Source of the DNA: Actinomycetota bacterium
GTDB taxonomy: Bacteria; Actinomycetota; Actinomycetes; JAKEEW01
Reading direction: 5' to 3'
DNA: 42,721 nucleotides
NCBI GenBank assembly: GCA_046725875.1
Contig: JBKOZJ010000013.1
Span: forward strand, 1-42,721
The position numbers and the translations under genes were made by a program. Below are positions 18,288 through 34,358 of the stretch, in pieces. Each line of letters begins with the position of its first letter. The first letter of the stretch is position 1. A model generated the notes under the pieces. That model did not search any database and was not told the DNA's origin. It saw only the letters and a list, made by a program, of their open reading frames with translations.

Positions 18288-18598
18288 CAGCCAGAACCAC
18301 CGCCAACACCTCGACGCGCCGGCCGGTGCACCGGGTCAACCTCCGGATGGCCGGGTGGCTTCGGCGTAACTCCGAGCGGTATCTCCTCGAGGCCGCCCAG
18401 GGCGAACTCGCGCGACAGGTCGGACGCTCGCCGCCGGTGCGAGTGACGGGCCCGGCGGCGCTGTTCTGGCGGCGCGTCTTCGTCCCCGTCTACCGTCGCC
18501 TGCCGTGGTCGGTCCGACGCCGCGTCATGTCGCGGATGCCGGGTAGCCATCGGCGGGCGTGGCGACCTGCCCCTGACCGTCGCGATCCCGCAGTGTGA
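18284..18598 (+). CDS. Small basic hypothetical protein
   Basis: Overlaps the upstream stop (ATGA) and the downstream ORF (GTGA), so it appears translationally coupled. Contains FWRRVFVPVYRRLPW. Confidence 0.7.
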   Translation: MTARTTANTSTRRPVHRVNLRMAGWLRRNSERYLLEAAQGELARQVGRSPPVRVTGPAALFWRRVFVPVYRRLPWSVRRRVMSRMPGSHRRAWRPAPDRRDPAV

Positions 18599-18624
18599 CT
18601 CATCCAGACAGGAGTGACCAAGCG

Positions 18625-19116
18625 ATGCCAGAGCCGACCGTAAGCATGGAGCGTCCCGCGGAGGGCGCCTACCTCTACAACACCGAAGCGAAGGAGTTCG
18701 AGGACATCCAGGCGAATCCTGGGGAGAAGGCGTTTGTCTTCATTCATACAGTGCCGTACGAGGGATCGGTGGCGCTGGTCAACCTCCTCACGGCGACCCG
18801 GCTGCGTCGTAAAGGGTTCGACGTGCACATCGTGCTCTACGGGCCCGGCGTACTCCTCGCATCGGGCACCCGCGGCTACCCAGCGGTAGGCCAAGAGGCG
18901 TTCCCGGGTCACCTCGCCATCAACAATCAGATCAAGACGCTGCTGAAGGAAGGCGCACACGTCTACGCCTGCCGGTTCGCGATGGGTGCGCTCTACGGCT
19001 TCCGCGAAAGCGACCTGCTCGAGGGCGTCACGGCCTTCAACCCGCTGGATGTGCTCGACGCGGCACTGACCGCGTGGCGCGAGGGCGCGTTCCAGCTGAA
19101 CACCTGGACTGTTTGA
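18625..19116 (+). CDS. MSMEG_0572/Sll0783 (NitB-like, DsrE-fold) family protein; alternative GTG start at 18595
   Basis: FEDIQANPGEKAFVFIHTVPYEGSVALVNLLTATRLRRKGF, LYGPGV, YACRFAMGALYG and C-terminal WTV. Confidence 0.88.
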   Translation: MPEPTVSMERPAEGAYLYNTEAKEFEDIQANPGEKAFVFIHTVPYEGSVALVNLLTATRLRRKGFDVHIVLYGPGVLLASGTRGYPAVGQEAFPGHLAINNQIKTLLKEGAHVYACRFAMGALYGFRESDLLEGVTAFNPLDVLDAALTAWREGAFQLNTWTV

Positions 19117-19129: not shown

Positions 19130-20299
19130 TCACCGCGCCGCCGGGCGGGCCAGCGGCAGCCGATCGTAGACCCCGCGGTGTTGCTCGGCGCACGCCGACC
19201 AGCGAAAGCGCCGAGCCACCGCCGGTCCGGCGGCCGATAGGCGCGCGGCCAGCGGGGGGTCGGTGAGGATTGCCCGCAGCGCGTCGGCCAGCGCCCGGGG
19301 GCTGGCCGCCGGCGTCATCAGGACACCTTCGCCGTGCGTAAGGTACTCCCGGAAGACCGGAATGTCCGTCACGACGGTCGGCAGGGCGGCTGCGAGAGCT
19401 TCGAGGACGACCAGGCCCCAGCCCTCGCTGACCGACGGGAACGCGAGCACGTCGGCCGCGTGGTACCACGCAGGCAGCTCCGCATCGATGACAGTTCCAA
19501 CCTGAACGATGTCCTGGTCGAGCGCGAGGCCGAGACCCGCCGCACGGGACAGCGCCCGGTCGCGGTACGCCTGGTGATCCTGGAACGAGTGCCCGCCGAT
19601 GACGGCGAGCACCGGTCCGGGGTTGATCTCATGGCGCAGCGAGGCGAGCGCCTCGAACAGCTCGATGCTTCCTTTGCGCGGCTCGATCCCGCCCACGGCG
19701 AGCACCAGCGGGCGGTTCGCGGCGCCGACGCTTGTCCGTAGTCTCGCAACGACTCCCGGCCCCGGCGGCTGCCCGAACCGATCCGCATCCACCCCGTTGT
19801 GCACGACGGACGCCGTCACGCCGTAGTCGCGGGCGAGGATTTGCTGCCAGTAGCGGCTGACCACCAGCACCTCGTCCGGCTCCAGGATCGCCTGCCGCTG
19901 GCAGGTGACGAGTGCCTGAGTGGTGAAGTCGTCGACGTGGTGCACGGTGCGTACGACAGTCACCGGCACACCCTCGTCCCTGACTCGTGCCGCCGCCCGG
20001 GCGGAGATGCAGTCCTGGGTGTGCAGGATGTCGTACGAGGCCGCCATCTCGCGCAACGCGTCGGCCAGGGTGTCGACGGCGGCGAAAACGCGTCCCTCGA
20101 GCGTTGGCAGCCAGGGCGGCGCCGGCACGATCGTGGAAGGCGTGGCCACCTCGGTGAACCAGCCCGCTTCCGGGTCCCCGAGCGCCACGATCTCGACGCG
20201 CTGGCCAAGCCGATGGAGGGCGTCGGCGAGTCGGAGCGTGTGCACGACCCCGCCACGCGGGCGGGTCGAATAGCTGACCAGGGCGATCCGCTCGGTCAT
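19130..20299 (-). CDS. MSMEG_0565-family GT4 glycosyltransferase
   Basis: YSTRPRGGVVHTL, HTQDCISA, RTVHHVDDFT, GGIEPRKGS and FPSVSEGWGLVVLEA. Confidence 0.9.
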   Translation of the reverse strand: MTERIALVSYSTRPRGGVVHTLRLADALHRLGQRVEIVALGDPEAGWFTEVATPSTIVPAPPWLPTLEGRVFAAVDTLADALREMAASYDILHTQDCISARAAARVRDEGVPVTVVRTVHHVDDFTTQALVTCQRQAILEPDEVLVVSRYWQQILARDYGVTASVVHNGVDADRFGQPPGPGVVARLRTSVGAANRPLVLAVGGIEPRKGSIELFEALASLRHEINPGPVLAVIGGHSFQDHQAYRDRALSRAAGLGLALDQDIVQVGTVIDAELPAWYHAADVLAFPSVSEGWGLVVLEALAAALPTVVTDIPVFREYLTHGEGVLMTPAASPRALADALRAILTDPPLAARLSAAGPAVARRFRWSACAEQHRGVYDRLPLARPAAR

Positions 20300-21810
20300 G
20301 GAATCTCCTCGACCAGGGATGCGTCCCGCGTCGCCACGGCCGCCGCGAGCAGTGCCGCCTGCGTCCCGCTCGGCGCGACGAGACATCCCGCATCGGCCAG
20401 GGTGCGCTGCTGTTCCTCGAGCCCCTGTGGATCGGTACCTGTGCCGAGAACATGGACAACGATGATTGGCCCGGTCATGGACTTGATCACCGGAGCCAGC
20501 ACGCTCGCCGGGTCCGGGTGCGCCCCGTGGCCGAGTACGACGTCGAACAGCAGCACTGCCGTCGTCGGATCATTACCCGCCTCCCGCAGCAAATCCACGC
20601 GGGCCTCCGCGTCGATCATCGGATGCGGCCGGGAGGTGGTGAACTCCTCCTCGCCCGCGTCGATACACGCGTGTCCGCCCGGTGGTGCGGGTAGCCGCCA
20701 GCTGGGCTGCAGCGGGGTGTTCGAGTAGACCGGACCAAGCCGCTGGGACAGCACGAGCATCGCCTGGTAGCAGAGGGTGCCACCGGAGAAAACGCCGCGA
20801 ACTCCCGTGCGCCCGGAGTCCAACTGCTCGATCGCAGTTGCAGCCATAGGGCGCAGGTCGCCGCCGAACCTCACCGGCGAAAGCCCCAGCTCGGCCAACG
20901 CGGCCTGAACCCCCTCGTCGAGGGTGCGCACCAGCCGGACCTTCGCCGGCGTCGGTGCCTCGTCCACGCCAAGCGCGACGATCACAAGCGGCTTTCCCTC
21001 CGCCGCCGGCAGGACGCCGGCCAGCACTTCCGGGTCGGGTGGCTTCGACACCAGGAGGAGAAGGTCGACATTGGCATCGGCCGCAAGCAGTCGCAGCGCC
21101 GACCGGGTCATCCGGCCGCCCACCGCGCGGGACAAGTCGCGCCCGCCCACTCCGACCACTGCTGCGACCCCGGAGCCGCTGGCTGCGAGCAGCGCGAGCA
21201 CCTCTTGTGCTCCGGTGCCGGCGGCGGCGACGACGCCGACTCGCCCCGCCCGAACGGCATTCGCGAAGCCAAGTCCCACTCCGCCGAGGACCGCCGTTCC
21301 CGCGCCCGGACCCATGACAAGCAGACCAAGGGAGTCCGCGCGAGCCTTCAAGGCGACCTCGTCCTCGACCGACACCCCGTCGCTGAACAGCAGCACGTGT
21401 AGCCCGGCGGACAGCGCCCGGTGAGCGGCGAGCGCTGCATAAGGGCCGGGAACCGAGACGACGGCAACATTGGCGCCGGGTAGGTCGGCCACCGCCGAAG
21501 CGATGGTCGACGGCCGAGGCGCGGTCCCAGCCGCATCGACGGCTTGCGAGCCGCTGAGAATGGCCTCGGCGGCGTCAAGGGCACGCTCGGCGGCGTCTGC
21601 CGAGCTGGCTCGCGCAATGAGCAGCAGGTCGTTGGCTCGCGCGTCCGGCGCGGCCACTCCCTCGTCGGCGAGCAAGCCGAGGTTCTGCGGTGTCCCCATG
21701 AGCGCGACCCCCCAGGTAACCCCTGGGCTGGCGGCCAGCGCGCGGGTAGCGGCCATCAGCCGCATCGAGTCGTGGTACGCGTCGGCATGCCGGCGCACCG
21801 CGGTCGTCAA
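20296..21810 (-). CDS. fdrA: FdrA/AllF (succinyl-CoA synthetase-like) protein
   Basis: YHDSMRLM, SVPGPYA, LLFSDGV, VMGPGAGT, GVGGRDLS, GGTLCYQ, RPHPMID and DVVLGHGAHPDP. Confidence 0.88.
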   Translation of the reverse strand: MTTAVRRHADAYHDSMRLMAATRALAASPGVTWGVALMGTPQNLGLLADEGVAAPDARANDLLLIARASSADAAERALDAAEAILSGSQAVDAAGTAPRPSTIASAVADLPGANVAVVSVPGPYAALAAHRALSAGLHVLLFSDGVSVEDEVALKARADSLGLLVMGPGAGTAVLGGVGLGFANAVRAGRVGVVAAAGTGAQEVLALLAASGSGVAAVVGVGGRDLSRAVGGRMTRSALRLLAADANVDLLLLVSKPPDPEVLAGVLPAAEGKPLVIVALGVDEAPTPAKVRLVRTLDEGVQAALAELGLSPVRFGGDLRPMAATAIEQLDSGRTGVRGVFSGGTLCYQAMLVLSQRLGPVYSNTPLQPSWRLPAPPGGHACIDAGEEEFTTSRPHPMIDAEARVDLLREAGNDPTTAVLLFDVVLGHGAHPDPASVLAPVIKSMTGPIIVVHVLGTGTDPQGLEEQQRTLADAGCLVAPSGTQAALLAAAVATRDASLVEEIP

Positions 21811-22751
21811 CGCAACCTCGTTCGGACCGGACTTCCGCTCACCAACCGGGTTCCGTGCCGGCCGGCGAGCCCGGCGGCGACGTGATCGGCGTTGGTGATG
21901 AGAGCGAGCTCGCCGCCAGCGGCGAGGAACTGGATGGCGGCGGTGACCTTGGGTCCCATGCTGCCGGCGGCAAACTGTCCGGCAGCCAAGTGGCCTTGCG
22001 CCTCTACTATCGTCAGCTCGTCGACCGGCCGCGCTTGAGGGGTGCCGTAGTCGAGCGAGATCGCGGGTACGTCGGTGACGAGCACGAGGGTGGCGGCCTC
22101 GAGGGCGGTGGCGAGCATGGCGGCCGCCAAGTCCTTGTCGATGACGCCGTCGACCGGCGTGAGCCGGCCGTCTCGCGCCACCACCGGGACGCCGCCCCCG
22201 CCACCGGCAATGACCACGGCACCGGCCGCGGCGAGGCGCTCGATGGGCGCCGCCTCTACCACCGCGCGCGGGCGGGGCGAGGGCACGACGCGGCGCCAGC
22301 CCCGGCCGGCGTCGTCGGCAATGTTCCAGCCGTGCTTCGCGGCGAGTGTGCGCGCCGTTTCCTCGTCCAAGAACGGGCCGACCGGTTTGGTCGGCCGACC
22401 GAATGCCGGATCGTCTGGCTCGACGACGACATGGGTGATGACGGACGCAACGCTGGTGACTCCACGGGCATTCAGCGCGAGCGCGAGGAGACTCCCCAAC
22501 TGGCCTTGCGTCATCGCGACGAGCGTCGGCAACGGCTGCGCCGGCACGACCGCCGATCCCAACTCCTGCTGGAGTGCGATGTTGCCGACCTGCGGTCCGT
22601 TGCCGTGGGTGACGACGATCCTCTTTTCATGCCGCCACACCGCCGCGACCGCATGGGCGATCCGATCGGCGTTGGCCTGTTGTTCCTGGGCGGTGCCACG
22701 CTCACCCGCACGGATCAGCGCATTGCCACCCAGGGCCATGACGATGGTCAT
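21807..22751 (-). CDS. arcC: Carbamate kinase
   Basis: ALGGNAL, THGNGPQVG, PTKPVGPF, RRVVPSP, GGGGVPV, VIDKD and GSMGPKV. Confidence 0.93.
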   Translation of the reverse strand: MTIVMALGGNALIRAGERGTAQEQQANADRIAHAVAAVWRHEKRIVVTHGNGPQVGNIALQQELGSAVVPAQPLPTLVAMTQGQLGSLLALALNARGVTSVASVITHVVVEPDDPAFGRPTKPVGPFLDEETARTLAAKHGWNIADDAGRGWRRVVPSPRPRAVVEAAPIERLAAAGAVVIAGGGGGVPVVARDGRLTPVDGVIDKDLAAAMLATALEAATLVLVTDVPAISLDYGTPQARPVDELTIVEAQGHLAAGQFAAGSMGPKVTAAIQFLAAGGELALITNADHVAAGLAGRHGTRLVSGSPVRTRLR

Positions 22752-22873: not shown

Positions 22874-23554
22874 GTGAGCTCCGGCATCGATGAGCCGGTC
22901 GGCCCCGACCAGCCGGTCGAGCTCGAAGAGCTGGCTCGCCGTTGGCAGGCGGCCGAGGACAAGCTGTACCCGGTCGTGCTGGTACGCCCCGACGTGTATG
23001 CCGCCGCCGTGACCTTGGTCCGCGCCGTCGCCGACCGGCTGGCCGATATCGGGAGCGTGGCGGAGCTTGCCGCGGCGTTCAGCTCGTCCGCGCAGCTGGT
23101 GGCGGACGTCGTACGCGACACCGGGGTTAATACCGAAGGCGTCGATCTCGGGCTGATCGCGGGCGCGGCATTCAGCATCCGCCACCGCGAGCTGCGCACA
23201 GCCGCCCAGCGTGAGCAGGCCAAGCAGCGCATTCGCGAGGCGGCCGCAGCCGGCCGGGACTGGGTGGTCCTGTTCGAGACGGGCCGCCTCGATCTAGCTC
23301 CGCTCGCTCCATACCGGCGACTGGAGATGCGCCGTAGCGACGGTCTGGGACTGCACGTCTCGGTCAGCCTGGATCCGTCAACCGGCGGTCCGTCGTTCGC
23401 GGTGGAGGCTGTGCAGCTCGATCCCATGACCGGCGACTGGGTTCATGAGGCGGAGCCGTCAACAGCTTCGAAGACGTACTCAACGCTGGACGAGTGGCAG
23501 CGCGCGATTGCGACCCTGCACCGCACCGGCGAGCTCCCTTCGCCCTTCTCTTGA
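22874..23554 (+). CDS. Hypothetical protein
   Basis: 226-aa ORF with GC3-rich codon usage filling the gap between arcC and the amidohydrolase. No family recognised. Confidence 0.75.
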   Translation: MSSGIDEPVGPDQPVELEELARRWQAAEDKLYPVVLVRPDVYAAAVTLVRAVADRLADIGSVAELAAAFSSSAQLVADVVRDTGVNTEGVDLGLIAGAAFSIRHRELRTAAQREQAKQRIREAAAAGRDWVVLFETGRLDLAPLAPYRRLEMRRSDGLGLHVSVSLDPSTGGPSFAVEAVQLDPMTGDWVHEAEPSTASKTYSTLDEWQRAIATLHRTGELPSPFS

Positions 23555-23628: not shown

Positions 23629-24492
23629 ATGCCCACGGACAAACTGTGGCGACGGGTCATCGACGGTCACAGTCACATCGGCGAGATGCAGGCGTGGAAG
23701 TTTTACGACCTGGCCGAGCCGGTGAAGCCGACGGTCTACGAGTTCGGGTCGACCACTGCCTACGTCGACCACATGGACCGGCTTGGCGTGGAGCGAGGAC
23801 TGGTCATCCCCAACTACGGCATCCCGGTACAGAGCCAGCCGTTCGAGCTCAACCAGCTTGTACTCGACTCGGTGACATCCAGCGATCGCCTGGCCGGCGC
23901 GCTCTGGGTGTCCTTCCTTCCGCAGAACCGCGAGTTGACCCTCGAGGCGCTCAAGCACGCCGGCGAGCGTCGCATCGTCGCGTTGAAGACGACCTTCCTG
24001 CTCGGCGGGACGCCCGACCCGGGCGGCTGGGACGAGGCGACGACCGAGGTTGCCGAGGCCTGCTTCGCCGCGGCCGAATCGCACGACCTTGTCTTTCACT
24101 TCCACACCAGCCCTGGCGGCGCATCCGACCTCAACAACTTCATCCCGCTCATCGAGCGCTATGGCAAGCGAGTCAAGATCTACTTGGTCCACTTCGGCGG
24201 CGGCGTGAGCGGCCACATCAGGCTGGTACCGAAGTTCCTCGACTGGGTCGAGCAGGGCTACAAGGTCTACACCGACACGACCTGGGCAGTGGGATTCGGC
24301 CCACGCTGGTTGCTCACCGAGATCGAACGCCGCGGCGTGGGCGGCGACCGCGTCCTTTTTGCCTCGGATGAGCCGTGGAGCGACTTCTGGGGCGAGTTCT
24401 ACAAGATCGAGGACACGCCGGTGAGCGAGGAGCTCAAGGATCGCGTGTTCCATGCCAACTTCGAGGCGCTTTATGGACACCGGCTCGGCTGA
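23629..24492 (+). CDS. Amidohydrolase superfamily (Amidohydro_2) metal-dependent hydrolase
   Basis: IDGHSH (HxH), HFHT, LVHFGGG, YTDTTW and RVLFASDEPW. Confidence 0.88.
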   Translation: MPTDKLWRRVIDGHSHIGEMQAWKFYDLAEPVKPTVYEFGSTTAYVDHMDRLGVERGLVIPNYGIPVQSQPFELNQLVLDSVTSSDRLAGALWVSFLPQNRELTLEALKHAGERRIVALKTTFLLGGTPDPGGWDEATTEVAEACFAAAESHDLVFHFHTSPGGASDLNNFIPLIERYGKRVKIYLVHFGGGVSGHIRLVPKFLDWVEQGYKVYTDTTWAVGFGPRWLLTEIERRGVGGDRVLFASDEPWSDFWGEFYKIEDTPVSEELKDRVFHANFEALYGHRLG

Positions 24493-25627
24493 GGCATCGC
24501 CGCTTACGCCGCAGTTGGCCGGTCTGCTGGCGGATCTGCAGAGCCTCGGCCTGCGGGTGGAGGAACCGCTGGAGTCCCGCCGTGGCGGCGCCGGGCCAGC
24601 CGACGCCGGGATGCTGTGGGTTGAGGGGGTCGCGGTGACCGTGCCGGTTGCCGCCCCGTTCGCCGCGAGCTCACCGTACGTGCTGCGCGCCGAGGACGAC
24701 GATGCGTACGGCATCTACCGCGACGGGGACCGCGTCGCATCAGCCCGCCGGACAACGCGGCCGCGGTATTACGACCTCACCACCGCGGACGGCATTCCCT
24801 ACTGGCAGATCGCGCTGCTGCACCTAGATTCGGTGGCGAGCACGGTCATCCAGACCTGCATGTATTGGGGCACCGACGATGTGTGCCGGTTCTGCGGGAT
24901 CGAGTTGACGCTACAGGCCGGCCGGACGATACCGGTGAAACGACCCGAGCACCTCGCGGAGGTCGCCGTTGCCGCCCGTGATCTCGACGGTGCCGTCGAT
25001 GCGACCCTCACGACCGGCACCACCCATGGGCACGACAAGGGCGCGCTCTATATCGCACGCTGCGCGAAGGCGATCAAAGACGCGAGCGGGCTTCCGGTCG
25101 AGGTCCAGTTCGAACCTCCGGACGAGCTGACCGTCCTCGACGCGGTGCGGGAGATGGGTGCCGACTCGGTCGGCATGCATATCGAGTCGTTCGATCCCGT
25201 GGTCCTCGCCCGCGTGGCGCCGGCGAAGGCGCGTACCGGGATCGACGGATACGTCCGCGCCTGGGAGCGGGCAGTCGACGTGTTCGGCCGGGGTCAGGTG
25301 TCGACCTACGTGATTCTCGGCATGGGAGAGGACATCGACCTCACCCTCGCGGGCTGCCGGCTCGCGATCGATATCGGCGTCTACCCCTTCGTGGTGCCGC
25401 TGCGTCCGGTGCCGGGCACGCCGATGGGTGACGTGCTGCCGCCGAGCTCCGACTACATGGAGGCGGTCTACCGCCGGGTCGTGCCCTATCTCGTCGAGCG
25501 CGGCCTCGGCTCTTGGAATGTTCGCGCCGGGTGCGCCCGCTGTCAGGCATGCTCGGCCATGACTGCGTTGGAGCGATCCCTTGGCAACGGCGAGCGTCGA
25601 AGCCTCCCCCTCGTCGACATCCGTTGA
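24473..25627 (+). CDS. MSMEG_0568-family (NitD-like) radical SAM protein
   Basis: SRRGGAGPADA, YYDLTTADGIPYWQIALLH, QTC-x8-CRFC cluster motif, STYVILGMGE, GVYPFVVPLRP and terminal CARCQACS. Confidence 0.92.
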   Translation: MDTGSAEASPLTPQLAGLLADLQSLGLRVEEPLESRRGGAGPADAGMLWVEGVAVTVPVAAPFAASSPYVLRAEDDDAYGIYRDGDRVASARRTTRPRYYDLTTADGIPYWQIALLHLDSVASTVIQTCMYWGTDDVCRFCGIELTLQAGRTIPVKRPEHLAEVAVAARDLDGAVDATLTTGTTHGHDKGALYIARCAKAIKDASGLPVEVQFEPPDELTVLDAVREMGADSVGMHIESFDPVVLARVAPAKARTGIDGYVRAWERAVDVFGRGQVSTYVILGMGEDIDLTLAGCRLAIDIGVYPFVVPLRPVPGTPMGDVLPPSSDYMEAVYRRVVPYLVERGLGSWNVRAGCARCQACSAMTALERSLGNGERRSLPLVDIR

Positions 25628-26069
25628 CCTGCTGTGCAGGGTCGTCGCCGGCCCGGCCGAGGCCGCGACCCACCATGCGATCCGGCGTCAGGTCTTCGTC
25701 GTGGAGCAGCACCTTTTCGAGGGTGACGACCGGGACGAGCACGACGAGGATCCCGCCACGCTGCACGTGATCGGCCTGGTAGGCGGTGTTCCTGGCGGCA
25801 CCGTGCGGCTGTATCCGCTCGAGGAGCGAGGGCTGTGGAAGGGCGACCGCCTGGCGGTTCTGCCGGAGTTCCGCCGGCACGGCCTCGGCGCCCCGTTGGT
25901 CCAGTATGCCGTGCGAACCGCCGGCCAACGGGGTGGCGACCAAATGATCGCCTACATCCAGCTGCCCAACGTTCGTTTCTTCAGGGCGCTCGGCTGGCAG
26001 CCGGTCGGGGAGCCGGCACCCTACGTGGGAGTCATCCACCAGCAGATGGCGATCCCGCTAGGCCGGTGA
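25581..26069 (+). CDS. GNAT N-acetyltransferase, MSMEG_0567 N-terminal/Sll0786 (NitE-like) family
   Basis: IRRQVFVVEQHLF..DRDEHD, GTVRLY, WKGDRLAV...RRHGLG and IQLPNVRFFRALGW. Confidence 0.88.
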   Translation: MATASVEASPSSTSVDLLCRVVAGPAEAATHHAIRRQVFVVEQHLFEGDDRDEHDEDPATLHVIGLVGGVPGGTVRLYPLEERGLWKGDRLAVLPEFRRHGLGAPLVQYAVRTAGQRGGDQMIAYIQLPNVRFFRALGWQPVGEPAPYVGVIHQQMAIPLGR

Positions 26070-27003
26070 CCGGCTCGTTGGGGAGATCGAGCACGGTGGC
26101 CGAGTCGGCCCCGCGGGACAGGCGTACGAGGCCAGTGCCGTCGAGCGTCGCAATCCGCGTGCACGCCAGCCCGCGGGCGTGGAACCGTGCCGCGCAGGCG
26201 GCGGCTCGCCCCGGCGGAGCACACAGCAGGAAGGCGAACGCGGGAAAGCACACGAGCCACTGTCCGAGGTCGACTCCGGCGGGGCATTGCAGTGCGTCCA
26301 GGTCGACCGTGACCCCTGCCCCGCGCCACTCGAGGAGCATGCCGAGCGAACCCACCAGCCCGGCCATGCTCACGTCCTTGGCCGCGACGACCTCGCCGGC
26401 CTCGGCGCTGGCGGCAAGTATTCGGACATCACCAGCCAGCCGATCGCCGCGCGCCTCCACCGAGGTGAAGAACGGGAATTCCGCGTGCATCGTGCCATCG
26501 AGACAGCAGGCGAGCAGCAGGTCGAGCCCCGGCTCGACATTCCGGGCCGACAGCACGGCGGCGGCCTCGCCGACGCCGAATGCGGAGACGGCTGGAGGGC
26601 CATCGCGTACGGTCAGATGCCCGCCGGCGACGCGCACGTCGTAGAGGCGAGCGGCGTAGGCAATTCCGCCAAGGACCTCTCGCGCAACGCGTGAATCGGC
26701 GATGACGGTGTCGAGGATCGCCTTGGGGCGAGCACCCATCGCCGCCAGGTCGTTGACATTGGTGAGGACCGCGGCGACGCCGGCTCCGAATGGATCGGCA
26801 GCCACGAGGGGCGGCCACAGCGCCTCCCCGCCAGCGAGGATGGTGCGGCGCCCGCACTCGGCGACGGCCGCCGCGTCGTCGCCCGGTCCGGCCAGCCAGT
26901 CGGTCGGCCCGAGGACCTCACGCACCAGGCCGATCGCCGCCTTGCCACGAAGGCCGGGGTGTGCCCGAACCACGGCTGCGAGCTCGGTCGGCGAGACCGT
27001 CAC
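26032..27003 (-). CDS. AIR synthase-related protein, Sll0787 (NitF-like) family
   Basis: GPGDDAAAV, DPFGAGVAAVLTNVNDLAAMGARP, AGGH and AAKDVSMAGLVGSLGMLLE. Confidence 0.88.
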   Translation of the reverse strand: MTVSPTELAAVVRAHPGLRGKAAIGLVREVLGPTDWLAGPGDDAAAVAECGRRTILAGGEALWPPLVAADPFGAGVAAVLTNVNDLAAMGARPKAILDTVIADSRVAREVLGGIAYAARLYDVRVAGGHLTVRDGPPAVSAFGVGEAAAVLSARNVEPGLDLLLACCLDGTMHAEFPFFTSVEARGDRLAGDVRILAASAEAGEVVAAKDVSMAGLVGSLGMLLEWRGAGVTVDLDALQCPAGVDLGQWLVCFPAFAFLLCAPPGRAAACAARFHARGLACTRIATLDGTGLVRLSRGADSATVLDLPNEPVTGLAGSPSAGG

Positions 27004-27022
27004 GTTGCACCAAAATAGACGC

Positions 27023-27042
27023 GCATTTACGATCGGAAAAGT
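27023..27042. promoter_or_regulatory. Degenerate copy of the XRE operator candidate
   Basis: Core TTTACGATCGGAAA, 13/14 to the palindrome TTTCCGATCGGAAA, in the 37-bp divergent gap between the AIRS-like gene and comA. Confidence 0.6.
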
Positions 27043-27826
27043 GCCGCCGGCCGACTTCCTCGACCTACCAGCCCGCAGCCGCAAGCCACGGACGGTCGGG
27101 TTGACCCATGTACTGGACAAGGGCCTGCCGATCGAGCATGTCCGCGCCTTGCTCCGCCAGTGTGCTTCATATGTCGACATCTGGAAGTTCGGCTGGGGCG
27201 TCGCATACATCGAGGATGCGGTAGCGGAGAAGGTTGCGTTGCTGCGCGAGTGGCAGGTGCTGGCCTGCCCGGGCGGGACACTGCTCGAGCTCGCCTGGGC
27301 GCAGGGGCGCTCCGCAGACTTCCTGGCGTGGGCGGCAGCGTGCGGGTTTCCGTGCGTGGAAGTGTCGAACGGCACAGTCGGAATGCCGGCGGCCGCAAAG
27401 CGCGCGCTCGTCGAGGCGGCTGCCGGCCGTTTCAGGGTGCTTAGCGAGGTGGGCTCGAAAGATCCGAACGTCCCGGTGTCGACTAGCCAGTGGTCGGAGC
27501 AGGCCAGGGCCGACGTGTCGGTCGGAGCGGAGTGGGTGATCACCGAAGGGCGGGAGAGCGGAAGCGTCGGTCTGTATGAGTCCAACGGGCAGGTTCGCGG
27601 CGAGCTCGTGTTCGCGCTGATCGACGCGGTCGGCGCGGAGCGGCTGATCTTCGAGGCGCCGCGCCGGGAGCAGCAGGTGTGGCTCCTCCGCAGCCTCGGG
27701 CACGAGGTGAGCTTGGGCAACATCGCGCCGGCCGAGGTGGTCGGCGTCGAGACGCTACGGCTCGGGCTGCGTGCGGACACCTTCTCGCCCGTCGCCGGTC
27801 GAGCTGCGGAGGGGCGATCGGGGTGA
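27041..27826 (+). CDS. comA: Phosphosulfolactate synthase (ComA/XcbB-like)
   Basis: R..KPRTVGLTHVLDKG, DIWKFGWG, PGGTLLE, VEVSNG, SEVGSKD, ITEGRESG, IFEAP, LGNIAP and ETLRLGLRADT. Confidence 0.93.
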   Translation: MPPADFLDLPARSRKPRTVGLTHVLDKGLPIEHVRALLRQCASYVDIWKFGWGVAYIEDAVAEKVALLREWQVLACPGGTLLELAWAQGRSADFLAWAAACGFPCVEVSNGTVGMPAAAKRALVEAAAGRFRVLSEVGSKDPNVPVSTSQWSEQARADVSVGAEWVITEGRESGSVGLYESNGQVRGELVFALIDAVGAERLIFEAPRREQQVWLLRSLGHEVSLGNIAPAEVVGVETLRLGLRADTFSPVAGRAAEGRSG

Positions 27827-28719
27827 CGAACCTCATGCCCGACCGCTACCGCGAGGTCAGCCTCACGACTGTGGACCACGAGCTCTCTGCCGCCGCCGTG
27901 CGCGCTCACCTCATGGGTCGTGAGGTATACCGGCGCACGCGATTCGTCGTGCTGCGGCACGACGGTCGCGCAGCCCTCGCCGCGGTCACCAAGGCGGATG
28001 AGACACCGCTTTTCGCCCCGGTGGTCGAGGTGGAGGTGCTTGCGCTACCGGGGGAGACGACCTGGGTAGATGCGCCGGAGGTCGACACGAGCGTGCCCAG
28101 CCAGCTCGCTCGGGCCGCGCGGGAACACGCTCCCGGCGCACGCTGTGCCATCGTGGCGGGGCGCCACGGCCACGTGAGCTTCCTGCTCGATCCGGCACCG
28201 GCGCGCGTTCGCGTGGTCGACGTTGCGCCGCCGTACCCCGCGAAGCTGGTGGACCAGGCTCAGGCCGTCCTCGATGTCGCCGACGAGATGCCGCCGGTTG
28301 AGCTTGTCGCCGGTGTCATCGACCTCGGTAATCTGGCGGCAACCCACCCCGCTGACCGCTATGTGTTGCCGTGCCGTGGCTCCGGGCTCGTCCTGGGGGC
28401 CGACACCGCGTATCTGGACGAACGACCGCCGGATGCGGACTGGGTGCTCGTCGGCTGCGCCCGGTCCCGGGAGATCCACGAATGGTTCTATCAACGAGAT
28501 GCGCCGTCGGTTGAGATGTGCCCGCGGCGGCTCGTCGCGAGTGACCGTACGGACATGACTATGCCGACACTCACTCGGTGCTGTCTGCTCGAGGAGGAGC
28601 GGTACGAGTGCGCGGCGGACGTCGCCGTCGTCCCCTGGGGAGCTTCGCTGTCATTGATCCGGACGGCCATCTCCGATCTGATCGGCGATGGAGGGAAACA
28701 TGTCGGCACCGCTGAATGA
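27823..28719 (+). CDS. Cys-motif hypothetical protein coupled to comA
   Basis: GTGA overlap with the comA stop. Motifs YVLPCRGSG, YLDERP, VGCARSREIHEWFY, MCPR, TRCCLLE and VVPWGA. Confidence 0.8.
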   Translation: MTNLMPDRYREVSLTTVDHELSAAAVRAHLMGREVYRRTRFVVLRHDGRAALAAVTKADETPLFAPVVEVEVLALPGETTWVDAPEVDTSVPSQLARAAREHAPGARCAIVAGRHGHVSFLLDPAPARVRVVDVAPPYPAKLVDQAQAVLDVADEMPPVELVAGVIDLGNLAATHPADRYVLPCRGSGLVLGADTAYLDERPPDADWVLVGCARSREIHEWFYQRDAPSVEMCPRRLVASDRTDMTMPTLTRCCLLEEERYECAADVAVVPWGASLSLIRTAISDLIGDGGKHVGTAE

Positions 28720-30052
28720 GATCCAGGTCCACGGCCATCTCTGGGGCACTGACGAGCTGCGCGCGATCTTCGCCGAACGGGCATGGTTGCAGGGCTGGCT
28801 CGACGTGCTGGTTGCGCTTGCGGACGCTCAGGCCGAGCTCGGCATCATCCCTCCGGCTGCCGCGAAGGCCATCGAGGCCGAGGCGCACATCGATGCACTC
28901 GACCTCGATCTCATCGCCGCCGAGACCAGGCACACTTCCCATTCCACCCTTGGCCTCATCGTTGCCCTTCAGCGGCAGCTGCCAGCGGACGCCCGCGAGT
29001 GGGTCTACTACGGCGCCACTGTGCAAGACGTCACGGACACCTGGACAGCCACGGCGATCAAGGACGTCTGCGCCGTTCTCTGGCGTGATCTACGGCTGCT
29101 GGAAGCAAGGTTGCTGGAGGTCGCCGAGGAGCACCGGGACACGGTGGTCGCCGGGCGAACGCACGGCCAGACGGGAGCGCCAACGTCCTTCGGCCTCAAG
29201 GCGGCGAGCTGGGCCGACGAGATCCGCCGTCACCTTGACCGACTGCGCGAGGGTGCGCCCCGATGGCTCGTGGGCCAGCTGGCGGGTGCGGTTGGCAACC
29301 TCGCCTTCTATGACAATCTCGGCCTCGAGCTACGGGAGCGGTTCTGCGCCCGGCTTGGGCTGGCCGATCCGCGTGTTTCCTGGACCTCCTCGCGCGATCG
29401 GCTGGCGGAGTTCGGCATGCTGCTCGCGCTGATAACCGGCACACTCGCCAGGATCGGCTCGGAGGTGTACCAACTCGCCCGTCCGGAAATCGACGAGCTG
29501 CGCGAGCCGGCGCGGGCCGGCACGGTCGGCAGCATCACGATGCCCCACAAGCGGAACCCGGAGGCGAGCGAGCATCTCACCACCCTGGCTCGGTTGGTCC
29601 GTTCCTCTGCCACCGTCCTGGTGGAGGGCGTCGTTACCGAGCACGAGCGGGACGGTCGTGGCTGGAAGGCCGAGTGGGTTGCATTGCCCGATGCCTGCCT
29701 CCTGACCGGTGCCGCGCTTTCCTTCGCACTCGCCCTCGTCGACGGGCTCGAGGTCAACATGGCGGCGATGCGCGCCAACCTCGGCCCGTTCAGCGGCTCG
29801 GAGCGGGCACTCGCACTGCTCGCCCCGCGGCTCGGCAAGCACCGTGCCCAGCAGTTGCTCCAGGAGGCTCTGGCAGCCGGGCGCGAGCGAGGCGTGCCGC
29901 TGGCCGAGGCCCTGCGGGCGGCGGACCTGTTGGATCCGGCGCTGGAGCAAGCACTTGCCACGCCCGATATCGGCAGCGCAGACGAGATGGTCGACGCCGT
30001 CGTGCAGCGCGGCCGAGCCGCCCGCGAGCGCGAACCGGAGCGCTGGCCTTGA
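28700..30052 (+). CDS. Adenylosuccinate lyase-like aspartase/fumarase superfamily enzyme (XcbD-like candidate)
   Basis: YGATVQDVTDT, GRTHGQ, GQLAGAVG, GSITMPHKRNPE and EHERD. Confidence 0.88.
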   Translation: MSAPLNEIQVHGHLWGTDELRAIFAERAWLQGWLDVLVALADAQAELGIIPPAAAKAIEAEAHIDALDLDLIAAETRHTSHSTLGLIVALQRQLPADAREWVYYGATVQDVTDTWTATAIKDVCAVLWRDLRLLEARLLEVAEEHRDTVVAGRTHGQTGAPTSFGLKAASWADEIRRHLDRLREGAPRWLVGQLAGAVGNLAFYDNLGLELRERFCARLGLADPRVSWTSSRDRLAEFGMLLALITGTLARIGSEVYQLARPEIDELREPARAGTVGSITMPHKRNPEASEHLTTLARLVRSSATVLVEGVVTEHERDGRGWKAEWVALPDACLLTGAALSFALALVDGLEVNMAAMRANLGPFSGSERALALLAPRLGKHRAQQLLQEALAAGRERGVPLAEALRAADLLDPALEQALATPDIGSADEMVDAVVQRGRAAREREPERWP

Positions 30053-31020
30053 TGACCGCGCGACTCCCGCTCTCGCTCGCGATGTGGCCTACGCCGCTGA
30101 TCCGCGCCGACCGGCTTGCGCGGTCGCTGGGGCGTACGGAGATCTGGGTCAAGCGCGACGACCTCACCGGTTTCATGCTCGCCGGTAACAAGGCTCGTCA
30201 GCTGGAGCGACTGGTCGAGGACGCGCGGGCGAGCGGGGCAGACACCTTGGTCACCGGGGGTGGGCCGGCGTCGAACTTCTGCGCGGCCGCGGCGGCGGCC
30301 GCCCGCCTCGCCGGGCTGCGCTGCGTGATTGTGCTCTACGGAGACAACGGCGGACCCATCCATCCCAACCTCGCCCTCACCCGGTGGCACGGCGCCGAGG
30401 TGAGCTTTACCGGCAATGCCGACCGGTCGTCCGTCGACGAAGTGCTGGACCAGGCAGCAGCGCAAGTGCTCGCCAGCGGGGGACGGCCCTACGTCGTGCC
30501 GCGCGGTGGAGCCACCGTCGTTGGCGCGCTCGCCTATGTCGATGCGGGCCAGGAGCTCGCCGATCAGCTGACGGCAGTCGGTGCCCGGCCAGCAACCGTG
30601 CTCGTCGCGGCGGGGTCGGGCGGAACTGCCGCCGGCCTGGTGGCGGCGGCGGTGGGAGGCGACCATCCGTGGCGGATTGTGGCCGCGGCCGTGAGCCGTC
30701 CTCCAGAGATCACCGCCACGCGTGTGCTCGAGCTCGCTCGGGCGGCGGCCGAGCACCGGCGCTTGCAGCGGCCCGCTGAGACTGACGTAGACGTACGGGA
30801 CGCGCGCGGTCCCGGTTACGGCCTCGCTTCGGTGGACGGCGAGCGGGCGGCAGAGCTCGCCGCTGCCACCGAAGGCCTGCTGCTCGACCCGGTGTTCTCG
30901 GCGAAGGCACTTGGCATCTTGCTAGCGAGTCCGCAGCTGCCCGGTCCGGTTGTGTTCTGGCATACCGGCGGCCATGCGGCTGCGCTGGCGCACCTCACCA
31001 CACTCGCCAAGGAGTCGTAG
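30052..31020 (+). CDS. PLP-dependent D-cysteine desulfhydrase/ACC deaminase family enzyme (XcbE-like candidate)
   Basis: PTPL, IWVKRDDLTG...GNKARQLE (PLP Lys), AAGSGGTAAGL, EGLLLDPVFSAKA and WHTGG. TGATG overlap with the upstream gene. Confidence 0.9.
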   Translation: MTARLPLSLAMWPTPLIRADRLARSLGRTEIWVKRDDLTGFMLAGNKARQLERLVEDARASGADTLVTGGGPASNFCAAAAAAARLAGLRCVIVLYGDNGGPIHPNLALTRWHGAEVSFTGNADRSSVDEVLDQAAAQVLASGGRPYVVPRGGATVVGALAYVDAGQELADQLTAVGARPATVLVAAGSGGTAAGLVAAAVGGDHPWRIVAAAVSRPPEITATRVLELARAAAEHRRLQRPAETDVDVRDARGPGYGLASVDGERAAELAAATEGLLLDPVFSAKALGILLASPQLPGPVVFWHTGGHAAALAHLTTLAKES

Positions 31021-31024
31021 CGAG

Positions 31025-32527
31025 ATGACGAAGCTACGCGGCCCGGCCGCGGAAGCACCGGCGCCAGAGCTGATCGCCGCGGGGTTCGCCCTGGAGGTCG
31101 CGGACGCACCCCTGCTGCATCGCGACCTCGGCCTCGCCGACCTGGCCCACCTGCTTGACCTGCGCGGGCGAGGGGTCGTACCGCCCGAACCGCTTGGCCG
31201 GCTAGTGGCCGCCACCCTCGATTCGCTGCAGATCCCGGCGGCGGAGTTCCCGTACGACGCCGCATACGGCGAGCTTTACAACTGCCGGGAACGGTGGTTC
31301 GTGGAGCGCCTCGGCGACGATGCGGGCTGGTTGCACGCGGGTCGGCCACGTCGCGAGGCTGCCCGGATCGCCCTGCGGCTACTGCTACGCCGATTGGTCG
31401 CCGACCTCGCCGGTGACGCCGCTGATTTCGCTGCGGCCGTCACTGAGGTGGCCGGTCGGCAGGCCGAGACCTGGATGCCGGATCAGACCTACCTGCAGCA
31501 GGCGCAGCCGTCGACGTTCGGTCATTACGTGCTCTCGTTCGCGTACCCGGCGATGCGCGACGCCGAGCGCTTGCTCGACGGGCTCGACTGGGTGAACCGG
31601 TCACCAGGAGGAGCGGGCTGCGTCAACGGGAGCCGTCTGGTCGGCGACCGGGACCACGTGGCTAGGCTGCTCGGGTTTCCCAGCGTGATCGAGCACACCC
31701 GGGATGCGATGTGGCAGCTCGACGGACTGGTCAGCCTTCTTGCGTCGGCCGCGAGCCTGGTCGCGAGCCAAAGCAAGCTGGCCGAGGATCTGGAGATCTG
31801 GGCAAGCGAGGAGTTCGACTTCGTCGACCTTGCCGGACCGTACACCAGGGCCAGCGTGCTCATGCCGCAGAAGCGCAACCCGTACGCGGTGGCCATCGTG
31901 CGCGGCGCCGGCGGAGTCTTGACCGGTCGGTTGTCGGGCTTCCTCGCGGTGGCCAAGACACCATCGGCGCGGAGCGACAACCTGATCTTTGCGTACGGTG
32001 AGGTGCCGCGCGCACTTGACCTGGCCAGCAGGGTGACCCGGCTGATGTCCGGTGTCGTATCCAGTCTTGAGGTCCACCCGGCGCGAATGTGGGAGGTGCT
32101 GCTGAGCGGCTTCTCCCAGGCAACCGACCTCGCCGAGCATGTGATGCTTACCTGCGACGTGGACTACCGGACGGCCTATCTCGTCGTGGGCCGGGCGGTA
32201 CGGGCCGCGAGCGAGCGTGGCATGCGCGGCGTCGACCTCACCGGTGAGCTGCTCGATGCAGCCGCAGTTGACCAAATCGGCCGCCCACTCGGCCTGGCCG
32301 GCAGCGATCTGTCGACCGTGCTCGATCCGCGTGCGGTCATCGAAACACGGATCGGTGCAGGCGGTGCGGCGCCCGCGGTGGTCCGCGATATGGCAACGCG
32401 CTGCCGGCTGGAGGCGGTTGCGATGACAGACCGGATCAAGGCGCTAGCCGCGGCGTTCGCAGATGCCGAAACCATGCTGATCAGACGGGCCGAGGAGGTC
32501 GCCCACCATGCAGTCAGTCCATTATGA
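31025..32527 (+). CDS. Argininosuccinate lyase-like aspartase/fumarase superfamily enzyme (XcbC-like candidate)
   Basis: LHAGRPRRE, MPDQTYLQQAQPSTFGHY, SPGGAG, LAEDLEIW, ASVLMPQKRNP, ATDLAE and YRTAYLVVGRAV. Confidence 0.88.
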   Translation: MTKLRGPAAEAPAPELIAAGFALEVADAPLLHRDLGLADLAHLLDLRGRGVVPPEPLGRLVAATLDSLQIPAAEFPYDAAYGELYNCRERWFVERLGDDAGWLHAGRPRREAARIALRLLLRRLVADLAGDAADFAAAVTEVAGRQAETWMPDQTYLQQAQPSTFGHYVLSFAYPAMRDAERLLDGLDWVNRSPGGAGCVNGSRLVGDRDHVARLLGFPSVIEHTRDAMWQLDGLVSLLASAASLVASQSKLAEDLEIWASEEFDFVDLAGPYTRASVLMPQKRNPYAVAIVRGAGGVLTGRLSGFLAVAKTPSARSDNLIFAYGEVPRALDLASRVTRLMSGVVSSLEVHPARMWEVLLSGFSQATDLAEHVMLTCDVDYRTAYLVVGRAVRAASERGMRGVDLTGELLDAAAVDQIGRPLGLAGSDLSTVLDPRAVIETRIGAGGAAPAVVRDMATRCRLEAVAMTDRIKALAAAFADAETMLIRRAEEVAHHAVSPL

Positions 32528-32903
32528 CGACCTCGAATTGCGGGGTGGTCAGCAGTGTGTTCGATATGTAGCAGTAGTTCTGGGCACGCTCAATGAGCGG
32601 CTCGAGCTCGCTCCTAGGGAGTGTGGACCGCACGGACACCCGCAGCGCCGAGAAGCGGAGACCCGTGTAGTCGCCGTCGACATCAACGGCCAGGTCTGGC
32701 AGCGCGACGTCGCGCTTGCGCGCGGCGTGGGCGACCGACGCGGCAAAGCAGGTAGCAAGCGAGGCCAGAAAAAGCTCGGTCGGCATCGGTCCCTGGTCGT
32801 CCCCGCCGGCCTCGGGCGGTTCGTCGGCGACGACCTCGAAGCCGCGCACCGAGGCCCGAACGTGGTAGCCCCCCTGCCAAATCGCGGTGAGTCGCACAGT
32901 CAT
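32514..32903 (-). CDS. OsmC/Ohr-family protein
   Basis: ADEPPEAGGDDQGPMPTELFLASLATCF...CYISNTL with two conserved Cys. Confidence 0.88.
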   Translation of the reverse strand: MTVRLTAIWQGGYHVRASVRGFEVVADEPPEAGGDDQGPMPTELFLASLATCFAASVAHAARKRDVALPDLAVDVDGDYTGLRFSALRVSVRSTLPRSELEPLIERAQNYCYISNTLLTTPQFEVVIMD

Positions 32904-34326
32904 GGACGGTAGCGCGCTCGATCGGGCCTCGCTGCCCGCCGAGGTGAAGGTCGTCAACGTCGGGCTCGCACTTTTCGCGGACGCGGTGCGCGAGCAAGGC
33001 GCCGATGTCGTCGACGTCGAGTGGCGCATACCGGCCGGTGGCCAAGCCGAGGTCGTGGCCGCGCTGACCCAGCTGGCCGGCCCACAGCACGAGCAGGTGG
33101 CCGCGGCAAATGCGGAGGTTCTTCGTCGGCTCAACGCGGGCACGCCGCTGCTCGTCGGCGTTGCCCCCGCCGGCAAGGTTGTACCCGATCTCGAGCCATG
33201 CACCGTCCTGCATAGTGGCCCACCGATCGACTGGACGGGCATGTGTGACCCATTGCGTCGCTCCTTCTGCGCGGCGGTGGTCGCCGAAGGCTGGGCGAGC
33301 GACGTGGGCGAGGTGCCGGGGCTGGTGGGTGCGGGAAAGGTTCGGCTGGCGCCGGCAAACCTCCACGACACCGTTCTGCCGATGGCCAGCGCCATCGGTC
33401 CGAGCGCGCCCGTCGTGATCGTCGAAAACGAGTCGGGTCCGACGCGGGCCTTCTCTGGAATCAACCAGGGTCCCGGCCGGGCCCCGTGGCTCGGCGTCGA
33501 CTCGCCAGAGGCGATCGAGCGACTGGCCCTGGTACGGGACGTGGTGGCGCCGGCGCTTGCCACCGTGCTGGCATCGGCTGGACCGGTCGACGTATTCGCC
33601 CTGGTCGCCCAAGGCCTGCAGATGGGCGACGAGTTGCACATGCGGTCCCAGGCCACCACGAACCTGCTCTGGCGGACGCTGTTGCCGCACCTGGTGGAGG
33701 TCGACTCGCCGACCATCGGCGCGACTGCCCGCTTCCTTTCTGGCAACCATCTGTTCTTCCTGAACATTGCGATGGCAGCGGCGAAGGCCGTGCTCATGGC
33801 GGCGTACGACGTCCCCGCCTCGAGCATCGTGGTCGGGATGTCGCGCAACGGTACGACGTTCGGGATTCGGCTTGCCGGAACTGGCCCGGCCGAGTTCGTC
33901 GCGCCGGCACCACTCGTGGGCAATGCGCTCTACCACTCGGGATTTGGGGAGGATGCCGCCGCCCCCGACATCGGCGACAGTGCGGTATTGGAGCTGGTCG
34001 GACTCGGCGGCGCGGCGGCGGCCGCGTCCCCAGCCGTCGCAGCCTTCCTCGGCGGCGCGGTGCAGGACGCGATCGCCACGTCCCAGGCTATGGAGACGGT
34101 CTGCGCTGGCCGCAGCGCACGGTTCACGCTGCCGTTGCTCGAGCACCGCGGCTCTCCGCTCGGTGTCGACGCGTGCGCAGTCGTCGAGACGCAGACCACG
34201 CCTGCAATCAACACCGGCATCCTCCATAGCACCGACGGAGCGGGCCAGATCGGAGCGGGCGTCGCGCGCGCGCCGCTCGAGTGCTTCGAGGCTGCGGTCC
34301 TGGCGCTGGCCGGCTCACTCGGCTAG
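32902..34326 (+). CDS. DUF1116/YlbE (AllG-like) protein; start may instead be GTG 32944
   Basis: VVNVGLALFADAVREQGADVVDVEWR, LHSGPP, GLQMGDELHMR, NHLFFLNIAMAA, MSRNGTTFGIR, PDIGDSA, INTGILH and GQIGAG. Confidence 0.88.
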   Translation: MDGSALDRASLPAEVKVVNVGLALFADAVREQGADVVDVEWRIPAGGQAEVVAALTQLAGPQHEQVAAANAEVLRRLNAGTPLLVGVAPAGKVVPDLEPCTVLHSGPPIDWTGMCDPLRRSFCAAVVAEGWASDVGEVPGLVGAGKVRLAPANLHDTVLPMASAIGPSAPVVIVENESGPTRAFSGINQGPGRAPWLGVDSPEAIERLALVRDVVAPALATVLASAGPVDVFALVAQGLQMGDELHMRSQATTNLLWRTLLPHLVEVDSPTIGATARFLSGNHLFFLNIAMAAAKAVLMAAYDVPASSIVVGMSRNGTTFGIRLAGTGPAEFVAPAPLVGNALYHSGFGEDAAAPDIGDSAVLELVGLGGAAAAASPAVAAFLGGAVQDAIATSQAMETVCAGRSARFTLPLLEHRGSPLGVDACAVVETQTTPAINTGILHSTDGAGQIGAGVARAPLECFEAAVLALAGSLG

Positions 34327-34358
34327 ACCCGCTGGGCCCCCGTTGCCCCAAGCGGCGC

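Follow-up and report, generated by a model that had tools for sequence, protein, structure and literature searches.

We analysed a DNA stretch of 42,721 nt (hereafter, the window; GenBank assembly GCA_046725875.1, contig JBKOZJ010000013.1) from a soil member of the Actinomycetota (lineage JAKEEW01), the source genome being 89% complete and assembled into 197 contigs. Five consecutive genes on its forward strand, at 27041-32527, encode relatives of the Xcb enzymes, which make coenzyme M (CoM) in bacteria, and profile searches give their order as comA/xcbB, xcbA, xcbD, xcbE, xcbC (B-A-D-E-C; Table 1). The comA/xcbB gene is the sole copy found in the source genome. The five genes are closely packed: comA and xcbA share 4 nt (GTGA), xcbD and xcbE share 1 nt, and xcbE and xcbC are separated by 4 nt, while xcbA and xcbD overlap by 20 nt if xcbD starts at 28700 or by 32 nt if it starts at 28688. 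A preliminary description of the locus had the gene list and the coordinates right; its statement that all overlaps or gaps are of 4 nt or less holds for three of the junctions and fails for xcbA/xcbD. Within 26800-33100 neither terminator-like sites nor, in the same scan, sigma-70 promoters were detected. As the G+C content of the window is high (64-71%), raw lists of open reading frames (ORFs) are crowded with antisense artefacts.

According to PMC9457059, the only bacterial CoM pathway that has been reconstituted biochemically is encoded by xcbABCDE of Xanthobacter autotrophicus Py2 (plasmid pXAUT01). The window encodes the same five protein families, as the preliminary description had proposed, and each protein is best matched by its own Xcb model. 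Over their full lengths the window proteins share 39-46% identity with the Xanthobacter enzymes, which were tested biochemically, and 43-50% with their counterparts in Nocardioides sp. JS614, whereas the Xcb proteins of JS614 and Xanthobacter share 36-45% identity; the window proteins are therefore as close to these two CoM users as the two are to each other. For the XcbC-, XcbD- and XcbE-like proteins the NCBIfam Xcb models outscore the housekeeping models, and for the XcbE-like protein the D-cysteate sulfo-lyase model reaches 207.5 bits compared to 281.6 for XcbE. The ComA/XcbB protein scores 247 bits against TIGR03849, which is under the cut-off of 280, and its family displays 38 near-invariant positions over 76 homologues. 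The protein that had been described only as an unknown cysteine-containing product belongs to the XcbA family (DUF7714): Cys184, Cys212, Cys233, Cys253 and Cys254 are invariant in all 84 aligned sequences and are conserved in Xanthobacter XcbA. Xanthobacter XcbD has exactly the loop motif of the XcbD-like protein, GSITMPHKRNPE, whose S-I recurs without exception in 72 out of 72 sequences, whereas PurB of the source genome reads GSSAMPHKKNPI at this position. The corresponding motif of the XcbC-like protein, ASVLMPQKRNPY, is the same as in the JS614 homologue. Finally, Lys47 of the XcbE-like protein, presumably the lysine that binds pyridoxal phosphate (PLP) in this family, is invariant in 60/60 sequences.

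The two lyases of the operon can be distinguished from their housekeeping relatives. A canonical purB is present elsewhere in the source genome (contig C127, 428 bits), and in the XcbD tree its product lies on a branch of length 5.08, apart from all 72 XcbD-like sequences. A canonical argH was not found in the source genome, incomplete as the assembly is, and the best argH match there is the XcbC-like gene itself (247.5 bits, under the cut-off of 279.5). Since argG is missing too, the absence of argH points to assembly incompleteness or auxotrophy rather than to XcbC being ArgH, and the arginine genes are probably unassembled. In RefSeq, homologues of the operon proteins are labelled ‘adenylosuccinate lyase family protein’, ‘pyridoxal-phosphate dependent enzyme’, ‘argininosuccinate lyase’ and ‘hypothetical protein’, which bears out the expectation that automated annotation would mistake these genes for purB- and argH-type genes.

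By analogy with the tested Xanthobacter enzymes, for which PMC9457059 assigns a step to each protein, the catalytic steps, the product and its use may be envisaged as follows. XcbB would combine sulfite with phosphoenolpyruvate to give phosphosulfolactate, from which XcbC would eliminate phosphate to yield sulfoacrylate. XcbD would then add cysteine to form 3-sulfopropionyl-cysteine, the PLP enzyme XcbE would release sulfoethanethioaldehyde, and the iron-sulfur/cysteine protein XcbA would reduce the latter to 2-mercaptoethanesulfonate, that is, CoM.

The preliminary description did not place the operon in a larger context. It is, however, an insert in a conserved cluster of ~17.6 kb (16716-34326), located between the gene for an AIR-synthase-like protein, from which comA diverges, and allG. 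Upstream of the insert, a reverse-strand operon comprises the genes for carbamate kinase, FdrA and a GT4 glycosyltransferase, and a forward-strand operon comprises those for a conserved protein without family match (u227), an Amidohydro_2 hydrolase, a radical SAM protein and a GNAT acetyltransferase, with u227 at its head. The cluster resembles Nit1C (PMC1199592, PMC7815647) in that its radical SAM, GNAT, DsrE-like and GT4 proteins pass the NCBIfam cut-offs of the Nit1C families; its AIR-synthase-like protein has the sll0787-type model as its best match, with a score below the cut-off. In Mycobacterium smegmatis, Nit1C corresponds to the gpr cluster, MSMEG_0565-0572, which is induced by GlnR and required for peroxide resistance (PMC6039565). 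By contrast to Nit1C, the window has neither a nitrilase (the nitrilase of Methylocystis Nit1C finds nothing in the window and a single match of 27.7% on another contig of the source genome) nor a Pnap_2097-type protein, while its additional members are the xcb operon, carbamate kinase, FdrA, AllG, OsmC, a flavoprotein resembling CoA-disulfide reductase (CoADR), the Amidohydro_2 hydrolase and u227. The FdrA/AllF-like protein, the AllG-like protein and carbamate kinase bring to mind allFGH-allK of E. coli, which encode oxamic transcarbamylase and a catabolic carbamate kinase (PMC11326118). In the window, however, these genes lie on two strands, AllH was not found either here or in the source genome (it occurs in 8 out of 80 related loci), and no allantoin genes were found.

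Table 1. Genes of the xcb operon and of the surrounding cluster, with positions in the window and profile scores (cut-offs in brackets)
Gene or product	Position	Strand	Length (aa)	Profile matches and remarks
comA/xcbB, phosphosulfolactate synthase	27041..27826	+	261	GTG start; PF02679 256.6 bits (25.2)
xcbA-family protein (DUF7714), presumed [2Fe-2S]/Cys thioaldehyde reductase	27823..28719	+	298	NF052538 324.4 bits (150); PF24830 298.8 bits
xcbD-like aspartase/fumarase-superfamily lyase	28700..30052	+	450	NF052536 575.5 bits (600), purB model 274 bits
xcbE-like PLP enzyme, D-cysteine desulfhydrase/1-aminocyclopropane-1-carboxylate deaminase family	30052..31020	+	322	NF052537 281.6 bits (450), best model; PF00291 136.6 bits
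xcbC-like aspartase/fumarase-superfamily lyase	31025..32527	+	500	NF052535 419.1 bits (575), argH model 247.9 bits
CoA-disulfide-reductase/NADH-oxidase-like flavoprotein (‘DSOR’)	16953..18287	+		ORF open from 16716; TIGR03385 243.5 bits (578.8, below); PF07992 159.9 bits
MSMEG_0572/Sll0783-family, DsrE-like protein	18577..19116	+		TIGR04044 199.6 bits (109.85, above); PF02635 27.5 bits
MSMEG_0565-family GT4 glycosyltransferase	19130..20290	-		Start approximate; TIGR04047 370.6 bits (259.85, above)
FdrA/AllF-like protein	20296..21810	-		NF004760 364.5 bits (433, below)
Carbamate kinase	21807..22751	-		NF009007 282.3 bits (266, above); TIGR00746 338.1 bits
Conserved protein u227	22874..23554	+	226	No family match; homologues at the same position in 25/80 loci
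Amidohydro_2 family hydrolase	23629..24492	+		PF04909 62.2 bits
MSMEG_0568-family radical SAM protein	24452..25627	+		TIGR04043 394.9 bits (303.7, above)
MSMEG_0567/Sll0786-family GNAT acetyltransferase	25581..26069	+		Start uncertain; TIGR04045 101.4 bits (68.45, above)
sll0787-type AIR-synthase-like protein	26032..27003	-		PF00586 and PF02769; TIGR04049 241.6 bits, best model (321.3, below)
OsmC-family protein	32514..32903	-		Convergent with xcbC, 14-nt overlap; PF02566 66.6 bits; NF041052 67.9 bits
AllG/DUF1116-like protein	32944..34326	+		Start between 32887 and 32986; PF06545 221 bits

The association of the operon with this cluster is conserved. When one genome was scanned for each species, confirmed XcbA relatives emerged in at least 574 species genomes, and the neighbourhoods of the best 80 of these loci were compared with a panel of window and reference proteins. 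In the 38 of the 80 loci whose sequence extends 9 kb or more to either side of xcbA, all five xcb genes are present in 31, AllG and OsmC in 32 each, the AIR-synthase-like and GNAT proteins in 29 each, the glycosyltransferase in 28, the radical SAM protein and the flavoprotein in 26 each, and the DsrE-like protein and carbamate kinase in 24 each. The epoxyalkane:CoM transferase XecA is found in none of the 38, and the nitrilase in one, which is also the only one among all 80. The five-gene xcb order is conserved across phyla. The carriers include Acidimicrobiia, Pseudonocardia, Nonomuraea, Microbispora, a Streptomyces, Dormibacterota and Chloroflexota, and among them are the cultured Pseudonocardia thermophila DSM 43832, P. 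sulfidoxydans NBRC 16205, Microbispora hainanensis DSM 45428, Streptomyces chiangmaiensis JCM 16577 and Nonomuraea spp. On a plasmid of Methylocystis iwaonis the same B-A-D-E-C operon is divergent from a complete Nit1C set, nitrilase included. Unbiased ORF clustering furthermore revealed that 16-17 of the 80 loci encode the alpha and beta subunits of nitrile hydratase less than 10 kb from xcbA (e.g. L046:16130-17332 and L030:19034-20104), where nitrile hydratase in effect takes the place of the classical Nit1C nitrilase; neither the window nor the source genome has one.

Two observations concern XcbA relatives more broadly. Longer relatives (12 scanned) are patchy ComA-DUF7714 or DUF7714-lyase composites that most likely arise from read-through into neighbouring genes, and they reveal no new partner domain. 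The XcbA-family model also gives a sub-threshold match in Methanosarcina acetivorans and none in the other 13 of 14 control genomes, and this match may represent a distant archaeal relative.

The only described use of CoM in bacteria is alkene and epoxide metabolism, as stated in PMC9457059 and PMC11507031. Consistent with the preliminary description, which had reported no alkene or epoxide genes in the window and had called for a genome-wide search, neither the window nor the source genome, at its 89% completeness, yielded an epoxyalkane:CoM transferase (XecA/EtnE); in the genome the best match to XecA is 23% identical and scores 62 bits. For calibration, EtnE of Nocardioides JS614 (49%) and of Mycolicibacterium chubuense NBB4 (46.5%) match XecA with ~300 bits, and generic methionine synthase II proteins with ~31% and 140 bits. 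The PF01717 matches of the source genome comprise a methionine synthase of the archaeal type, split into a pair, and a gene between mnmA and ligA. The diiron monooxygenase family PF02332 has no match in the source genome, which is weak evidence because the same search matched none of the 14 control genomes either. In five cultured carriers, XecA matches only generic MetE-like proteins (at most 33% identity, ~70 bits), and in the 80 best loci no XecA lies closer to xcbA than 10 kb.

A sample of 400 genomes drawn evenly from the phylum separates two kinds of carriers. XcbA is above the cut-off in 10 of these genomes and the radical SAM gene in 16, and an orthologue of the window flavoprotein (59-77% identity) is found in 10. 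Three XcbA carriers (G163, G254 and G347) encode an EtnE-like protein (48-52% identity) and have neither the flavoprotein nor the radical SAM gene, whereas six (G094, G108, G122, G176, G293 and G321) have the flavoprotein, in five cases together with the radical SAM gene, and none of these six has an EtnE-like gene. The phylogenies are in line with this division. In a tree of the five concatenated proteins (49 sequences), which retained 45 of the 80 loci, the window and three alkene references (loci with any gene missing or with less than 85% query coverage were dropped), the three references are separated from the 46 cluster-type sequences, the window and Methylocystis included, with full support (100) in the Shimodaira-Hasegawa-like approximate likelihood-ratio test. 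In the XcbA tree (93 sequences) the three EtnE-positive sample genomes side with the three alkene references (support 98). The concatenate and XcbA trees are in effect unrooted, and the XcbD tree is rooted on the single, very long PurB outgroup; because PurB and Xanthobacter XcbD, both on long branches, come together there, we do not assign the ancestral state to either lineage.

Accordingly, the window and Xanthobacter Py2 lie on opposite sides of a branch with support of 98-100. They also differ in gene order, which is A-B-C-D-E in Py2, and in surroundings, since the Py2 operon adjoins xecA, xecC and epoxide-carboxylase genes of the short-chain dehydrogenase/reductase (SDR) family and the window operon lies in a Nit1C/gpr-like cluster. 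The B-A-D-E-C order is not a special feature of the cluster-type operons, as it is common to the alkene plasmids of Nocardioides sp. JS614 and M. chubuense NBB4, whose Xcb proteins are 43-52% identical to those of the window. These plasmids likewise carry a CoA-disulfide-reductase-type flavoprotein nearby, and the FAD oxidoreductase beside comA in JS614 is 32% identical to the flavoprotein of the window. By contrast, they carry EtnE, SDR and CoA-transferase genes, none of which is found in the window or the source genome.

Given the genes present, the families and signatures of their products, their synteny and distribution, and their separation from the alkene-linked lineage as described above, we propose, with a probability of roughly 0.65, that CoM, or a very close sulfonate thiol, is made by the operon for the Nit1C/gpr-like cluster and not for alkenes. 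The non-alkene purpose, already suggested in the preliminary description, is supported by the conserved synteny with a different cluster and from the clean split between transferase-bearing and cluster-bearing genomes. Several points weigh against this proposal. The XcbC-, XcbD- and XcbE-like proteins score below the NCBIfam ‘exception’ cut-offs for Xcb enzymes (419/575, 575.5/600 and 281.6/450, respectively). The cluster-type lineage is set apart from every known CoM-making enzyme set by a well-supported branch, so that a changed product is possible. One of the ten XcbA carriers of the phylum sample (G267) has neither an EtnE-like gene nor the cluster context. Conversely, two sample genomes (G131 and G388) contain the core cluster without xcb, the AIR-synthase-like gene adjoining allG directly. 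They keep the flavoprotein, OsmC, the glycosyltransferase, FdrA, carbamate kinase, the DsrE-like protein, a u227-type unknown, the hydrolase, the radical SAM protein and GNAT, which indicates that xcb behaves as a plug-in module, that neither the flavoprotein nor OsmC is CoM-specific and that the cluster does not need CoM everywhere. As to the transferase, a distant gene could lie in the part of the source genome that is not assembled. Moreover, the Methylocystis iwaonis plasmid (NZ_AP027143.1) carries at 203664-204007, ~20 kb from its Nit1C-linked xcb operon, an XecA/EtnE-like fragment (residues 14-130, 51-61% identity) that is interrupted by an in-frame TAG and changes frame, and which looks like a decayed epoxyalkane:CoM transferase gene.

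Part of this evidence would suit a different outcome, in which the pathway is diverted and, instead of free CoM, another sulfonate such as sulfoacrylate, 3-sulfopropionyl-cysteine or one of their derivatives is built into a larger metabolite by the radical SAM, GNAT, AIR-synthase-like and glycosyltransferase enzymes. Besides the sub-threshold scores and the separate lineage of the cluster-type proteins, such a diversion would agree with the operon always lying among biosynthetic-looking genes and with the gene content of the xcb-less G388, where the gap between FdrA and carbamate kinase is filled by a luciferase-like monooxygenase, a PLP decarboxylase and an aminotransferase, resembling exchangeable precursor modules. 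An early stop is, however, hard to square with the presence of all five genes, including that of the last-step reductase XcbA with its five invariant cysteines, in 31 of the 38 full loci, and the signature of XcbD is that of the tested enzyme. We regard diversion as unlikely, though the most serious competitor of CoM synthesis for the cluster.

Considerably less probable is that the operon is an ordinary CoM supply for an alkene or epoxide pathway encoded on a plasmid or in the 11% of the genome missing from the assembly. The fragmented assembly leaves room for such a pathway, the literature cited above describes no other bacterial use of CoM, 3 out of the 10 XcbA-positive sample genomes do have an EtnE-like gene, and the Methylocystis plasmid retains a fragment of one. 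Yet no EtnE-like gene was found in the source genome, the six cluster-type sample genomes or the five cultured carriers, nor within 10 kb in any of the 80 best loci, and EtnE-linked and cluster-linked XcbA proteins separate on the tree. That housekeeping purB, argH and D-cysteine desulfhydrase genes came to lie beside comA by chance can be practically dismissed, despite the XcbC-like gene being the best argH match of a genome in which no canonical argH was found, as the Xcb models score higher, the loop motifs are unlike PurB, a canonical purB is located elsewhere, argG is missing as well, PurB forms a very long outgroup branch and the five-gene order is conserved across phyla.

If the operon indeed serves the Nit1C/gpr-like cluster, CoM or a close sulfonate thiol would most likely be the dedicated small thiol of the cluster, acting either as a redox cosubstrate of the OsmC/flavoprotein pair or as a carrier or building block for the cluster product. 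Extra CoM is reported to shield methanogens from oxidative stress (PMC12713407), which is compatible with a redox role. A bolder version, which we consider a long shot, gives CoM a second, alkene-independent job as the small thiol of Nit1C/gpr-type clusters in hundreds of soil Actinomycetota, Dormibacterota and Chloroflexota and, in its boldest form, makes it a carrier thiol for one-carbon carbon-nitrogen chemistry. An S-carbamoyl group might then be loaded or unloaded by carbamate kinase and the FdrA/AllG transcarbamylase, the HypE-like AIR-synthase relative might convert the S-carbamoyl form into the S-cyano form and back, the cyano form might be acted on by the nitrile hydratase or nitrilase of sister clusters, and OsmC and the CoADR-like flavoprotein might cycle the thiol and its disulfide. 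The carbamoyl/cyano carrier idea presumes analogies with the HypE and HypF families and draws on the nitrile enzymes of the sister clusters.

Other features of the cluster may be summarized briefly. After TIGR04049, the AIR-synthase-like protein is best matched by ‘methanogenesis marker 2 protein’ (153.6 bits), a link to a methanogen-specific family beside a CoM operon. The best model for the OsmC protein of the window is ‘OsmC-related (seleno)protein’, and two of the ten flavoprotein orthologues of the phylum sample contain a single in-frame TGA (G131:C1:3268719-3270038 and G333:C40:49773-51092), so selenocysteine variants of the redox proteins of the cluster may exist. The source genome has second copies of FdrA (40%), AllG (43%) and carbamate kinase (44%) at C114:28966-31766 and C117:8628-9557, and a weak nitrilase-like match is found on contig C114. 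On another contig, at C26:14360-14458, 33 residues of the XcbE-like protein recur with 97% identity, probably as an assembly fragment or a small duplication. For u227 a confident AlphaFold model (predicted local distance difference test, pLDDT, 88.6) has a helical N-terminal half and a beta-sheet C-terminal half; there was no Pfam or NCBIfam match, no usable match in the ESM Atlas and no Foldseek match in PDB at E<=0.001, and its sequence profile matched only designed helical repeats in PDB (E>=0.0028). A forward-strand ORF at 20695-21402, taken up as a conserved unknown, proved to be an antisense shadow of the FdrA gene, and several clusters from the ORF clustering of the 80 loci are artefacts of the same kind.

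As for expression, the 37-bp spacer between the AIR-synthase-like gene and comA (27004-27040) is the most A+T-rich stretch nearby, and TANNNT-type hexamers, read by eye, stand 7-8 nt ahead of both flanking GTG starts (TACGAT 7 nt before that of comA), which suggests back-to-back leaderless transcripts from this spacer. For GlnR, with the box consensus assumed to be GTNAC-N6-GNAAC and one mismatch allowed, 22 sites were found compared to 21.2 expected, i.e. no enrichment, and a GlnR-like site at 18355-18370, upstream of the MSMEG_0572 homologue, is not above chance. A scan of 16000-35500 against Rfam (E<=0.1) gave no matches. Among the matched sequencing runs no RNA run is listed, and five DNA runs share 0.05-0.09 of the sampled words.

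What is new here is that a known CoM pathway occurs in a new, conserved and widespread context, contrary to the current view of CoM synthesis in bacteria. According to PMC11507031 (2024), methanogens and aerobic alkene users are the only organisms known to have genes for CoM biosynthesis, and the presence of these genes is taken as evidence of epoxide metabolism; a 2021 preprint calls bacterial CoM synthesis rare and reports archaeal-type genes, not xcb. In the literature searched we found no published link between comA or CoM biosynthesis and Nit1C. The view of PMC11507031 fits poorly with at least 574 species genomes carrying an XcbA relative and with an even phylum sample in which carriers without the transferase in the cluster context outnumber those with it by six to three. 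If the cluster-type operons make CoM, this cofactor would be far more widespread in aerobic soil bacteria than thought, and comA and xcb would no longer be markers of alkene degradation or methanogenesis in metagenomes. The Nit1C/gpr cluster, on record since 2005, has been linked to cyanide use, nitrogen starvation and peroxide resistance. CoM synthesis by these operons would give this cluster a chemical handle, an easily detected sulfonate thiol, and, should the carrier role be true, CoM would be tied to the cyanide-assimilation and nitrogen-starvation phenotypes of Nit1C and to the peroxide resistance conferred by gpr.

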